The position numbers and the translations under genes are program-made. From sequence record OP870146.1: DNA of 64,000 nt; one strand, 5' to 3'. Under the pieces are notes generated by a model, which was not told the DNA's origin, ran no database searches, and was given only the letters and a program-made list of their open reading frames with translations. This DNA is from Escherichia phage vB_Eco_F27. This document shows positions 2,398-59,141 of the stretch, one piece after another; the first letter of the stretch is position 1, and every line of letters begins with the position of its first letter.

Positions 2398-3966
2398 ATG
2401 ACTACTATCAAAACTAAAGCTCAGCTCGTAGACAAATGGAAAGAACTGCTGGAAGGTGAAGGCCTGCCGGAAATCGCTAATAGCAAGCAGGCTATTATCG
2501 CTAAAATCTTCGAAAACCAGGAAAAAGATTTCGAAGTATCCCCTGAATATAAAGACGAGAAAATCGCTCAGGCATTTGGTTCTTTCTTGACCGAAGCTGA
2601 AATTGGTGGTGACCATGGTTATAATGCTCAGAACATCGCAGCAGGTCAAACCTCTGGTGCAGTAACCCAAATTGGGCCGGCAGTTATGGGTATGGTTCGT
2701 CGTGCTATTCCTAATCTGATCGCTTTTGATATTTGTGGTGTTCAGCCTATGAACAGCCCGACCGGTCAGGTATTTGCTCTCCGTGCAGTATATGGTAAAG
2801 ACCCTATCGCTGCTGGCGCTAAAGAAGCTTTCCATCCGATGTATGCTCCAGATGCGATGTTCTCTGGTCAGGGTGCTGCTAAGAAATTCCCAGCTCTGGC
2901 TGCTGACACTACTACTGTTGTAGGTGATATCTATACTCACTTCTTCCAAGAAACTGGTACTGTATATCTGCAAGCTTCTGCTGTCGTAACACTTGATTCT
3001 GGTGCAACTGACGCATCTAAATTAGATGCCGAAGTTAAGAAACAAATGGAAGCTGGTGCACTGGTAGAAATCGCTGAAGGTATGGCTACTTCTATCGCTG
3101 AACTCCAGGAAGGTTTCAACGGTTCTACCGATAACCCATGGAATGAAATGGGCTTCCGTATCGATAAACAAGTTATCGAAGCTAAATCTCGCCAGCTGAA
3201 AGCTGCTTACTCTATCGAATTAGCACAAGACCTCCGTGCAGTACACGGTATGGATGCTGATGCTGAACTGAGCGGTATTCTGGCTACAGAAATTATGCTA
3301 GAAATCAACCGTGAAGTTGTTGATTGGATTAACTACTCTGCACAGGTTGGTAAATCTGGTATGACCCTGACTCCGGGTTCTAAAGCTGGTGTATTTGACT
3401 TCCAGGACCCGATTGATATCCGTGGTGCTCGTTGGGCCGGTGAAAGCTTTAAATCTCTGTTGTTCCAGATTGATAAAGAAGCAGTTGAAATTGCTCGTCA
3501 AACCGGTCGTGGTGAAGGTAACTTCATTATCGCTTCCCGTAACGTAGTTAACGTACTGGCTTCAGTTGATACTGGTATTTCTTACGCTGCACAGGGCCTG
3601 GCTTCTGGTTTTAATACCGACACTACTAAGTCTGTATTTGCCGGTGTACTTGGTGGTAAATACCGCGTATACATCGACCAGTATGCTAAACAGGATTACT
3701 TCACCGTTGGTTACAAAGGCGCTAACGAAATGGATGCAGGTATTTACTATGCTCCTTACGTTGCACTTACCCCACTGCGTGGTTCCGATCCTAAGAACTT
3801 CCAGCCGGTAATGGGCTTTAAAACTCGTTACGGTATCGGTGTTAACCCGTTTGCTGAAAGTTCCCTGCAGGCTCCAGGTGCTCGCATCCAGTCCGGTATG
3901 CCGTCTATCCTGAACAGCCTTGGTAAGAACGCTTACTTCCGCCGTGTATATGTAAAAGGCATCTAA
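2398..3966 (+). CDS. 23: major capsid protein gp23
   Basis: ORF track 522 aa; translation (MTTIKTKAQLVDKWKELLEGEGLPEIANSKQ...) recognised as T4 gp23; late promoter TATAAATA at 2254-2261 inside gene 22. Confidence 0.97.
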   Translation: MTTIKTKAQLVDKWKELLEGEGLPEIANSKQAIIAKIFENQEKDFEVSPEYKDEKIAQAFGSFLTEAEIGGDHGYNAQNIAAGQTSGAVTQIGPAVMGMVRRAIPNLIAFDICGVQPMNSPTGQVFALRAVYGKDPIAAGAKEAFHPMYAPDAMFSGQGAAKKFPALAADTTTVVGDIYTHFFQETGTVYLQASAVVTLDSGATDASKLDAEVKKQMEAGALVEIAEGMATSIAELQEGFNGSTDNPWNEMGFRIDKQVIEAKSRQLKAAYSIELAQDLRAVHGMDADAELSGILATEIMLEINREVVDWINYSAQVGKSGMTLTPGSKAGVFDFQDPIDIRGARWAGESFKSLLFQIDKEAVEIARQTGRGEGNFIIASRNVVNVLASVDTGISYAAQGLASGFNTDTTKSVFAGVLGGKYRVYIDQYAKQDYFTVGYKGANEMDAGIYYAPYVALTPLRGSDPKNFQPVMGFKTRYGIGVNPFAESSLQAPGARIQSGMPSILNSLGKNAYFRRVYVKGI

Positions 3967-3990
3967 TCTTAATTGATTAAATCTTATTTT

Positions 3991-4008
3991 GGGAGACTTC
4001 GGTCTCCC
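3991..4008 (+). terminator. GGGAGAC-UUCG-GUCUCCC tetraloop hairpin terminator after gene 23
   Basis: 7-bp GC-rich stem, UUCG loop, followed by AUUUUUGGUUUU. Confidence 0.6.
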
Positions 4009-4018
4009 ATTTTTGGTT

Positions 4019-4288
4019 TTATTTCTGTGCAATTTCGATGTAAGTTTTCAAAATATTTTGCCAATTAGGCATACCTTCTTGGACATATGCCGGAGAACCA
4101 TCTTTGTTTTTGAATGATGCAAGTTTATCAGTGGCCCAATAACCTTTAGCTCGAGCTTCAGAATCAACTTTCATCCATACTTTGTTGAAGGCATTACCAT
4201 TAACTTTTGCACCATATTTTTCTACTAACTTAACCGCTTCAGCTTCCAGAACTTTTAAAGTATCTCGTAAGAAACGTGCTTTAGTCAT
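4019..4288 (-). CDS. hypothetical early protein, 89 aa
   Basis: ORF track; own GTTTAC-N18-TACTAT early-type promoter (4319-4348) and hairpin 3991-4008 downstream; occupies the 23/24 intergenic site where T4 carries segD. Confidence 0.55.
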   Translation of the reverse strand: MTKARFLRDTLKVLEAEAVKLVEKYGAKVNGNAFNKVWMKVDSEARAKGYWATDKLASFKNKDGSPAYVQEGMPNWQNILKTYIEIAQK

Positions 4289-4318
4289 TTTGTTTACTCC
4301 TCTGTAGTTGATAAGTCT

Positions 4319-4348
4319 ATAGTATCACATACCAAATACGTTGTAAAC
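4319..4348 (-). promoter_or_regulatory. T4 early-type promoter (GTTTAC-N18-TACTAT) for the 89-aa gene
   Basis: Minus strand reads GTTTACaacgtatttggtatgtgaTACTAT. Confidence 0.55.
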
Positions 4349-4354
4349 AATCTT

Positions 4355-4362
4355 TATAAATA
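4355..4362 (+). promoter_or_regulatory. T4-type late promoter TATAAATA (gene 24)
   Basis: Exact TATAAATA 28 nt upstream of ATG. Confidence 0.6.
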
Positions 4363-4389
4363 ATCTATATCACATAAGGAAAAAATGCA

Positions 4390-5673
4390 ATGAGTAAAAT
4401 CCAAAAATTATTGCGTGAATCTACAACGTCTACTAGCAACTCAATCGGTCGCCCAAATCTCGTTGCTTTGACTCGCGCTACGACTAAATTAATATATTCT
4501 GACATTGTAGCAACACAAAGAACTAATCAACCTGTTGCTGCTTTTTATGGTATCAAATATCTTAACCCAGACAACGAATTAACATTTAAAACTGGTGCTA
4601 CTTATGCAGGCGAAGCTGGATATGTAGACCGAGAAAAAATTACCGAACTCACAGAAGAATCAAAAGTCACATTAAATAAAGGCGATTTTTTCAAATATAA
4701 TAATATCGTCTATAAAGTGTTAGAAGATGCACCATTTGCAGATATTCAAGAAAGTGATCTAGAATTAGCTCTTCAGATTGCGGTCGTTCATTTAAAGGTA
4801 CGGTTATTTTCGGATGCAGCGGTAACAAGCAAATTTGAAAGCTCTGGTAGCGAAATTTCTGATGCAAGATTCCAGATTAATAAATGGCAAACTTCAGTCA
4901 AATCTCGTAAACTTAAAACCGGCCTCACGGTTGAATTAGCGCAAGATTTGGAAGCAAATGGATTTGATGCCCCTAACTTCTTAGAAGATTTGCTTGCTAC
5001 TGAAATGGCTGATGAAATTAATAAAGATATTCTTCAGTCTTTAATTACTGTATCGAAACGTTATAAAGTTACTGGAATTACTGACACTGGATTTATTGAC
5101 TTGAGCTATGCGTCTGCTCCAGAAGCAGGCCGTTCGTTATACCGAATGGTATGTGAAATGGTTTCGCATATCCAAAAAGAGTCAACTTATACTGCAACGT
5201 TTTGCGTAGCTTCAGCTCGTGCAGCTGCTATTCTTGCTGCTTCTGGTTGGTTAAAACATAAGCCAGAAGATGACAAGTATCTTTCACAAAATGCTTATGG
5301 ATTCTTGGCAAATGGATTACCTCTTTACTGCGATACCAACAGTCCGTTAGATTATGTTATTGTGGGTGTTGTAGAAAATATCGGTGAAAAAGAAATTGTA
5401 GGGTCCATCTTTTATGCTCCATACACTGAAGGAGTAGATTTAGATGACCCGGAACATGTTGGTGCTTTTAAAGTTGTAGTTGATCCAGAAAGCTTGCAAC
5501 CGTCTATCGGATTATTGGTTAGATATGCTTTATCAGCAAATCCTTACACAGTAGCAAAAGACGAAAAAGAAGCGAGAATAATTGATGGCGGGGACATGGA
5601 TAAAATGGCAGGACGTTCAGACTTGTCTGTTTTACTCGGTGTTAAATTGCCTAAAATTATTATAGATGAATAA
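4390..5673 (+). CDS. 24: head vertex protein gp24
   Basis: ORF track 427 aa; late promoter TATAAATA 4355-4362; gp23-like fold family by synteny and size. Confidence 0.9.
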   Translation: MSKIQKLLRESTTSTSNSIGRPNLVALTRATTKLIYSDIVATQRTNQPVAAFYGIKYLNPDNELTFKTGATYAGEAGYVDREKITELTEESKVTLNKGDFFKYNNIVYKVLEDAPFADIQESDLELALQIAVVHLKVRLFSDAAVTSKFESSGSEISDARFQINKWQTSVKSRKLKTGLTVELAQDLEANGFDAPNFLEDLLATEMADEINKDILQSLITVSKRYKVTGITDTGFIDLSYASAPEAGRSLYRMVCEMVSHIQKESTYTATFCVASARAAAILAASGWLKHKPEDDKYLSQNAYGFLANGLPLYCDTNSPLDYVIVGVVENIGEKEIVGSIFYAPYTEGVDLDDPEHVGAFKVVVDPESLQPSIGLLVRYALSANPYTVAKDEKEARIIDGGDMDKMAGRSDLSVLLGVKLPKIIIDE

Positions 5674-6825: not shown

Positions 6826-7077
6826 TTAGAACTTGATTTCTATCCAATGTCCGTCACGTTGGTCATGATTAATTTTATACTGAAAGCCGTTATCACGAAG
6901 CCATTGACCGACTTGTTCAGTTATAGTTAAATCGTTCTTTGACGGGTAGTATGTAAATTGTGTCTGGCCTTTGTCAGCGGCTTTCTCTGCCATCGCAGAG
7001 AAGTTAGTAATAAAATCACTCAACAAATTGGCTTTAGTGGCCAGAGCCCTTTCTCTTAATTCCTGTGCAAAACTCAT
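6826..7077 (-). CDS. hypothetical protein (24.2-like position)
   Basis: ORF track 83 aa; synteny between rnlB and hoc. Confidence 0.5.
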   Translation of the reverse strand: MSFAQELRERALATKANLLSDFITNFSAMAEKAADKGQTQFTYYPSKNDLTITEQVGQWLRDNGFQYKINHDQRDGHWIEIKF

Positions 7078-7274
7078 TTCTTCACCTTTTTATTAATCAG
7101 ACGTTTACGGTATACAACTTTTTCTTTTGCTTTAAACTTTGACCGAGCTGTCTCGGCTTTAGTCCATAGTAATCCAACTTCTTTAGGTTGTAAACCGATT
7201 TTTTGAGCAATTTCTACGAATGAAAATCCCGCCTCATGTAATGTATAAACTTCAACTTCAGCTCTCATAATCAA
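7074..7274 (-). CDS. hypothetical protein with HTH-like segment (24.3-like position)
   Basis: ORF track 66 aa; ATGA coupling to downstream ORF. Confidence 0.5.
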   Translation of the reverse strand: MIMRAEVEVYTLHEAGFSFVEIAQKIGLQPKEVGLLWTKAETARSKFKAKEKVVYRKRLINKKVKK

Positions 7275-59113: not shown

Positions 59114-59141
59114 TAATATCATGTTTGAAGCACATGTAAAC
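59114..59141 (-). promoter_or_regulatory. T4 early-type promoter (motA)
   Basis: GTTTACatgtgcttcaaacatgaTATTAT on minus strand. Confidence 0.5.

Follow-up and report, generated by a model that had tools for sequence, protein, structure and literature searches.

A conserved 89-residue gene behind a predicted early promoter occupies the antisense slot between capsid genes 23 and 24 of RB69-like phages

The DNA analysed here, which we call the window, is a stretch of 64,000 nucleotides from Escherichia phage vB_Eco_F27 (record OP870146.1), a Mosigvirus, that is, an RB69-like T-even phage related to T4. At the locus of interest the gene order is gp21, gp22, gp23, an 89-aa ORF, gp24, rnlB, 24.2/24.3, hoc and inh. 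In the ORF list, gp23 (2398-3966) and gp24 (4390-5673) are plus-strand genes and rnlB, beyond gp24, is on the minus strand. An earlier note on this DNA had described an 89-aa minus-strand ORF between the two capsid genes. We found it at 4019-4288 with an ATG start, and every other sequence feature listed in that note proved to be present at the coordinates it gave. Positions 3900-4450 are 99.3-99.6% identical to many Mosigvirus genomes (PhAPEC2, ST0 and APCEc01, for example), and positions 3960-4400 are 95.5% identical to RB69. With the empty slot of the Tequatrovirus RB3 setting the limits, the whole cassette, comprising promoter, 5′UTR, ORF and a short 3′ tail, covers 4010-4354 on the minus strand.

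The ORF is an intact homologue of RB69ORF188c/189c and aligns with the phrog_6003 profile end to end (E = 2.1e-45, residues 1-89 on profile positions 1-90 of 90). RB69ORF188c/189c (NP_861878/NP_861879), JS98 gp173, VR7 gp190, PhAPEC2_170 and phrog_6003 all stand for this gene in this slot, and the PhAPEC2 annotation calls it 'similar to RB69ORF188c'. The RB69 reference has the gene split into two short ORFs, whereas the window carries the intact 89-aa form. The split is caused by +1 and -1 indels at NC_004928 109291-109531 (L014 589-829), which divide the gene into ORF188c and ORF189c, and a cluster of mismatches adjoins them; it reflects either true pseudogenisation or a sequence error of the early 2000s. 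A literature search on RB69ORF188c, its accession numbers and phrog_6003 found no paper.

Is the ORF a gene? A Shine-Dalgarno sequence, GAGGAG, lies at 4297-4302 on the minus strand, with its GGAG core, at 4300-4297, 8 nt upstream of the ATG and an A-rich tract following. GGAG occupied -10 to -12 in 10 of the 10 T4-like loci examined, and the Shine-Dalgarno sequence and start codon are conserved across the compared loci. Synonymous sites approach or exceed saturation when the major clades are compared with one another (pS 0.58-0.93), and many pairs give no dS estimate; we therefore took dN/dS from within-clade pairs only. Pairwise Nei-Gojobori (NG86) dN/dS was 0.04-0.14 in those pairs with dN below 0.3 that yielded an estimate. 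The least saturated pair, L003-L004, had a dS of 0.32 and an omega of 0.136; the ratio was 0.116 between the window and L016 and 0.12 between the window and L012. These ratios indicate that the ORF encodes a protein, and it remains intact and full-length down to 30% identity across genera. We conclude from the substitution pattern that the 89-aa ORF is a genuine gene whose protein product is under purifying selection. Its composition (GC 35.6%, GC3 24.4%) matches that of gp24 and the neighbouring genes, and the likeness in GC3 argues for a long-resident gene, not a recent import.

A predicted early sigma-70 promoter at 4312-4348 faces the ORF on the minus strand. The site had been read as GTTTAC-N18-TACTAT, and this reading holds: the -35 element GTTTAC occupies 4348-4343 (4348-4342 when written GTTTAC(A)), 18 nt follow, and the -10 element TACTAT lies at 4324-4319, with a TG at 4327-4326. 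By the reading of a promoter scanner, this site is TTTACA-N17-TACTAT and has an extended -10 (TG). Transcription is predicted to start near A4312, and the initial transcribed motif, AGACTTATCAAC, is common to other early promoters in the window. A generic sigma-70 scan was uninformative in this region, returning 2 sites where 2.4 were expected by chance. The pattern GTTTAC-N17-19-TAYTAT-nGAC had seven matches in the window, every one of them on the minus strand, where 0.00 were expected. A looser pattern gave 14 matches, again all on the minus strand, at 59141, 56643, 46125, 42828, 35334, 34151, 32745, 30619, 27036, 26592, 20169, 19684, 7195 and 4348 (first base of the -35). Most of these are followed by a Shine-Dalgarno sequence and an ATG within 20-45 nt, and in many of them the initial transcribed motif is AGACYTATCAAC and the Shine-Dalgarno sequence is of the GAGGA type. 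From the strict and loose counts together, we conclude that the promoter-like site of the ORF is a regular member of the early promoter family of this phage. Between loci, its spacer sequence diverges, but the hexamers, the distance between them and the extended -10 are conserved. One of the 14 sites, at 7195-7166, lies inside a 66-aa ORF (7074-7274) that has the position of the 24.3-like CDS of PhAPEC2; given this location, it may be an internal promoter.

T-even early promoters carry GTTTAC at -36 to -31 (PMC1524935), and the window site combines this element with a TAnnnT -10 at the right spacing and faces an ORF. For RB69, Nolan et al. (2006; PMC1524935) had predicted the early promoter Pe:109605 (109555-109605, minus strand, score 29.9; their supplement 2), the late promoter Pl:109573 (supplement 4) and a TransTerm terminator at 109234-109251, labelled '23-><-RB69ORF188c' (supplement 5). 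These three map to window positions 4312-4362, 4330-4372 and 3991-4008, respectively. The proposal that this is an independently regulated, early-type gene is thus supported by a promoter of the early family that had also been called in RB69. We found no Mosigvirus transcriptome in the literature; promoter activity and immediate-early timing are predictions.

The slot is bounded on both sides by signals of the late genes. At its upper end, the gene 24 late promoter, TATAAATA, lies at 4355-4362 on the plus strand, 27 nt before the gene 24 ATG. It stands back-to-back with the early promoter, as had been noted, 6 nt from the -35 hexamer. This arrangement, TATTTATA-5/6 nt-GTTTAC, is conserved in occupied slots, and the reversed TATAAATA box takes the position of an A/T-rich UP element of the early promoter. 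At the lower end, the stem-loop TGGGAGAC-TTCG-GTCTCCCA, followed by TTTTTGG (3990-4009, plus strand), is the intrinsic terminator of gene 23. The hairpin itself, GGGAGAC-TTCG-GTCTCCC at 3991-4008, has a folding energy of -13.5 to -16.8 kcal/mol (z about -4.1 to -4.7) and is conserved in both empty and occupied slots. The earlier note had the ORF reading into this UUCG hairpin. The hairpin is indeed there, but as a terminator it serves gene 23, on the plus strand, only: read on the ORF strand, its loop is CGAA and its tail is AAAAUAAG, with no U-run, and the scanner called a terminator on the plus strand alone. Judged by these signals, the ORF of the window phage is without a canonical terminator of its own. 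The hairpin may nevertheless stabilise the 3′ end of the minus-strand mRNA.

What occupies the slot varies among phages. Three Tequatroviruses, RB3, G28 and T4, have near-identical gp23/gp24 flanks and differ in slot contents. The RB3 slot is empty, an 83-nt stretch consisting of the hairpin, 17 nt and TATAAATA, with no sigma-70-like site; most Tequatroviruses sampled have a slot like this one and no ORF. The G28 slot contains the hairpin, the ORF, its 5′UTR, the -10 and the -35, and then TATAAATA. T4 has segD between genes 23 and 24 on the minus strand, as the earlier note had stated, and both T4 and T6 carry segD behind a promoter-like sequence homologous to that of the ORF. With flanks so nearly identical, the comparison of RB3, G28 and T4 argues that the early promoter comes and goes with the cargo. 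The T4 site, TTTACA-N17-TATTAT with a TG extended -10 (10/12 consensus matches), is positionally homologous to the window early promoter and lies on the minus strand at L006 2754-2782 (NC_000866, about 107,253-107,281). Edgell et al. (2010; PMC2988022) reported that no segD-specific promoter could be identified, and segD is not mentioned in the T4 omics paper. The promoter-like site suggests that, contrary to the published review, T4 segD has a promoter after all.

The two cargos can also coexist, as a tandem in the Dhakavirus phage 04086 (L004, OR842557) demonstrates. There, an unannotated 223-aa SegD-like GIY-YIG ORF (3271-3942, same strand as the family ORF; 57% identity to T4 SegD) starts 3 nt downstream of the family ORF. 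In the same record, gp23 is annotated as a truncated CDS of 1110 nt; the full 519-aa ORF is at 4002-5561. The supposed insertion hotspot is thus a plastic slot that exists in empty, ORF, segD and ORF+segD versions. A repeat search found no terminal, direct or inverted repeats flanking the cassette, which argues against a transposon. The most economical account would be that phages exchange the cassette through homologous recombination, within its conserved flanks and the promoter repeats. A further variation at this locus concerns gp24, the capsid vertex protein: L002, L003, L009 and L012 (Gaprivervirus, Dhakavirus and metagenomic T4-like phages) have two tandem gp24 paralogues, and Mosigvirus and T4 have one.

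The earlier note had called the gene an orphan, and this did not survive the searches: it has about 240 homologues, in four T-even genera and in rV5-like phages, and is an orphan by function only. A tblastn search returned 239 phage records, of which 119 were at least 90% identical, one (the frameshifted mogra copy) was 80-90% identical and 119 were below 60%; this last group had about 30-38% identity among the matches listed. The ORF is conserved in the antisense 23/24 slot in Mosigvirus, Dhakavirus, Gaprivervirus and one Tequatrovirus, G28, which has T4-like flanks and a JS98-type copy of the ORF. Diverged copies occupy the same antisense slot in Gaprivervirus VR20, in Dhakavirus WG01 and 04086 and in metagenomic T4-like contigs. 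One protein of the family (P0006, 90 aa, L012 4001-4273) was named 'NADPH-dependent curcumin reductase CurA' by JGI, an evident mis-annotation of a phage protein. Another, P0021, had no other record above 60% identity in the phage collection and, as the sole query, found no related loci in IMG/VR.

Copies outside the slot were found at L008, L017, L029 and L031 and in ABPH49. Relatives at about 35% identity, namely ABPH49 and three further metagenomic contigs (36-141 kb), lie in an rV5-like context, within long runs of small co-directional ORFans of the kind typical of early regions; the L017 copy heads another small-gene cluster. The record called 'Acinetobacter phage ABPH49' (L007, MH533020) is a 150-kb member of the Vequintavirinae in which consecutive small hypothetical genes surround the family member. 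Hence, the gene crosses phage families. An exhaustive HMM search of 1.84 billion representative proteins recovered only family members apart from two repeat-protein artefacts, so the family is phage-restricted and narrow. The artefacts were two giant repeat proteins, P0022 and P0024 (Big_2/LRR_5; filamin-like), which reached E = 5e-15 and 2e-06 against the family profile. We rejected them because these scores sum 8-11 weak repeat matches, and the case is a caution for repeat-summed HMM scores in general. Broken copies of the ORF, through frameshift or truncation, occur in RB69, mogra and 310Ecol104PP. Since the gene is broken in these phages and absent from most Tequatroviruses sampled, we consider it dispensable.

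The encoded protein is basic and soluble, with a pI of about 9.6 and a net charge of +6; the pI is 9.3-9.9 in 11 of 12 family members and ranges from 8.0 to 9.9 in the family. Its predicted topology is helix-helix-hairpin-helix (helices 3-25 and 31-48, a beta-hairpin at 52-60/66-70 and a helix at 76-88). Residues N30-G31-N32, N35 and Q70 are invariant. AF2 modelled the window protein with a pLDDT of 93.0 and a member of 35% identity with 94.2, both models having the same topology, and the BFVD model of a Dhakavirus family member superimposed with a TM of 0.85. The fold prediction is confident and reproducible, and the modelled fold has no informative structural neighbour outside its own family: fold searches of PDB and BFVD found no neighbour of known function, and a sequence profile search of PDB found nothing below E = 0.025. 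The earlier note had held that the protein is not a GIY-YIG endonuclease, and in agreement with this a Pfam scan found no match to such a domain, no nuclease motif, no catalytic family and nothing above threshold. The nearest Pfam candidate, DUF4859, scored 17.9 bits against a cut-off of 22.6 and was matched by 3 near-identical members of 15; being sub-threshold and confined to near-identical members, we attribute it to chance. Homology searches and structure prediction have therefore supplied a family and a fold with no relative of known function, and the Pfam, NCBIfam, PADLOC, PDB, HMM and Rfam searches together gave no functional lead.

How might these observations fit together? We favour, with a probability of about 65%, a self-contained early cassette, made up of a sigma-70 promoter, a GGAG ribosome-binding site and the 89-aa ORF, that would be transcribed by the host enzyme early in infection and would encode a non-enzymatic binder conferring a conditional advantage. 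The cassette fills the space from the gene 23 terminator to the gene 24 late promoter and would be transcribed against the late genes, by unmodified host RNA polymerase, during the first minutes after infection. RegB targets GGAG in early translation initiation regions (PMC3014915), and the GGAG of the ORF is a possible cleavage motif. The mRNA would then probably be short-lived, although GGAG is also a common T4 Shine-Dalgarno sequence, which weakens this point. The product would be a small basic protein with the compact fold described above that works stoichiometrically as a binder of either a nucleic acid or an acidic protein, the partner most likely being one of the host. We propose such partners because the positive charge is conserved, which is the only physicochemical hint. 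The advantage would lie in host takeover or counter-defence and would not amount to an essential function, and co-infecting phages would pass the cassette on to one another when they recombine homologously within the conserved flanks and the promoter sequences.

Within this reading, an anti-defence role is possible. Perhaps, more narrowly, the protein is a specific inhibitor of one bacterial anti-phage defence system? The gene has an early-type promoter, small size and a patchy distribution; it is dispensable, sits in a plastic slot and has been swapped between genera and phage families. Such traits are the usual hallmarks of counter-defence genes such as those for T4 Arn, Dmd, TifA and Acb. 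However, the protein had no profile or fold match among known anti-defence and defence families, and scans with NCBIfam and PADLOC returned no significant family and no defence-library signal. The strongly acidic surface expected of a DNA-mimic anti-restriction protein is the reverse of what we see (net charge +6, pI 9.6), and the conserved basic charge argues only against a mechanism of this Ocr/Arn type. The protein is also near-invariant in Mosigvirus, where 117 of 120 records are at least 95% identical, a poor fit with an arms-race target. We therefore regard the specific inhibitor as unlikely, though it is the alternative that fares best.

A functional tie to the SegD-type homing endonuclease, with the ORF as its partner, its modulator or passenger DNA spread by homing, is suggested by segD of T4 and T6, which shares the slot, orientation and promoter context, and by phage 04086, in which the ORF is immediately followed by the SegD-like gene. 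However, none of the other family loci inspected had a segD-like neighbour, segD occurs in T4 without the ORF, and the rV5-like relatives have no neighbouring endonuclease. Such a tie is quite improbable.

The lack of a U-run on the ORF strand means that read-through antisense to gene 23 is possible. Could the functional product then be an RNA or the act of transcription, either as an 'anti-late' antisense to gene 23 or as interference with the gene 24 late promoter, the ORF being incidental? The missing intrinsic terminator on the minus strand and the 6 nt that separate the early from the late promoter would suit this idea. Against it stand the strong purifying selection on the protein sequence, the conserved Shine-Dalgarno sequence and start codon, and the retention of the same protein in unrelated genomic contexts. 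In Gaprivervirus VR20, moreover, the equivalent hairpin has T-runs on both sides, including the ORF strand, and an Rfam scan found nothing near gathering scores. We consider this explanation highly improbable.

The location between genes 23 and 24, together with a chance-level PHROG match to an 'internal virion protein' family (E = 0.09), might point to an accessory protein of head morphogenesis acting with these two genes. This is hard to credit for a gene with an early-type promoter and no TATAAATA late promoter upstream of it on the minus strand; the gene is missing from most Tequatroviruses sampled, although their gp23 and gp24 are homologous, and the rV5-like copies lie among early-type small ORFs, far from head genes. 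Finally, AT-rich phage DNA gives many spurious ORFs of 40-160 aa on both strands, but a chance ORF is effectively refuted by the dN/dS of 0.04-0.14, by its intact, full-length state at 30% identity across genera and by the confident, reproducible predicted fold.

The early cassette that we favour resembles several known systems. The T4 segD cassette shares its slot, antisense orientation, TTTACA-N17-TATTAT with TG beside the reversed TATAAATA, and a homologous downstream hairpin; it differs in its unrelated cargo, SegD being a 223-aa GIY-YIG nuclease and the window product an 89-aa protein without a nuclease motif. T4-type phages also carry PeSL (promoter-early stem-loop) cassettes (Arbiol et al., 2010, PMC2839356; Comeau et al., 2014, PMC4122927). 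PeSL promoters are repeated genome-wide with variable ORFans and supply the homology on which modular shuffling can draw, also at those loci of the core genome that are plastic and non-essential (PMC4122927). The window promoter, TTTACA-N17-TACTAT, fits the T4/PST PeSL consensus TTTACW-N17-TAYWAT (PMC4122927). In PeSL cassettes, however, a stem-loop directly precedes the promoter, whereas the window promoter is preceded by the gene 24 late promoter. A scan upstream of it found no stem-loop, only the late promoter and the start of gene 24. The sole stem-loop in the cassette slot is downstream of the ORF and belongs to gene 23.

Classical lambdoid morons, as described by Juhala and Hendrix, are expressed in the prophage state and come with a terminator of their own. 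Like them, the cassette is an extra gene with its own predicted promoter within a late operon, absent from relatives with the same flanks; unlike them, it belongs to a strictly lytic phage, has an early lytic promoter and lacks its own terminator on the ORF strand. In size class, predicted early timing and apparent dispensability, the product also resembles small T4 early effectors such as AsiA, Arn, Dmd, Alc and Acb2/Vs.4. We conclude that the architecture is that of a known class of T-even early ORFan cassettes: moron-like, with a PeSL-type promoter, in a slot shared with a free-standing homing endonuclease.

Part of this picture was already known: the gene is annotated as RB69ORF188c/189c, and the predictions of its regulatory signals in RB69 date from 2006. 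What is new is modest, namely the breadth of the family, the evidence for selection, the series of empty, ORF, segD and ORF+segD slots, the fold without an informative neighbour and the T4 segD promoter-like site. Apart from the hint about segD, nothing conceptually new is added. A bolder interpretation, which we offer tentatively as possible but doubtful, is that the protein is the first member of a family of early effectors with a new structure, binders that serve counter-defence or host takeover, whose cassette is traded among T-even and rV5-like phages. The 23/24 gap would in that case be a conserved 'expression slot' with a resident early promoter that is reused by unrelated cargos (the ORF, segD or both).

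T-even phages carry dozens of small early genes, and several of these have proved to be host-takeover or counter-defence factors. The family described here lends itself well to study, since its protein is short, conserved and dispensable and has a confident predicted fold, and natural 'empty', 'ORF', 'segD' and 'ORF+segD' versions of its slot are available for comparison.
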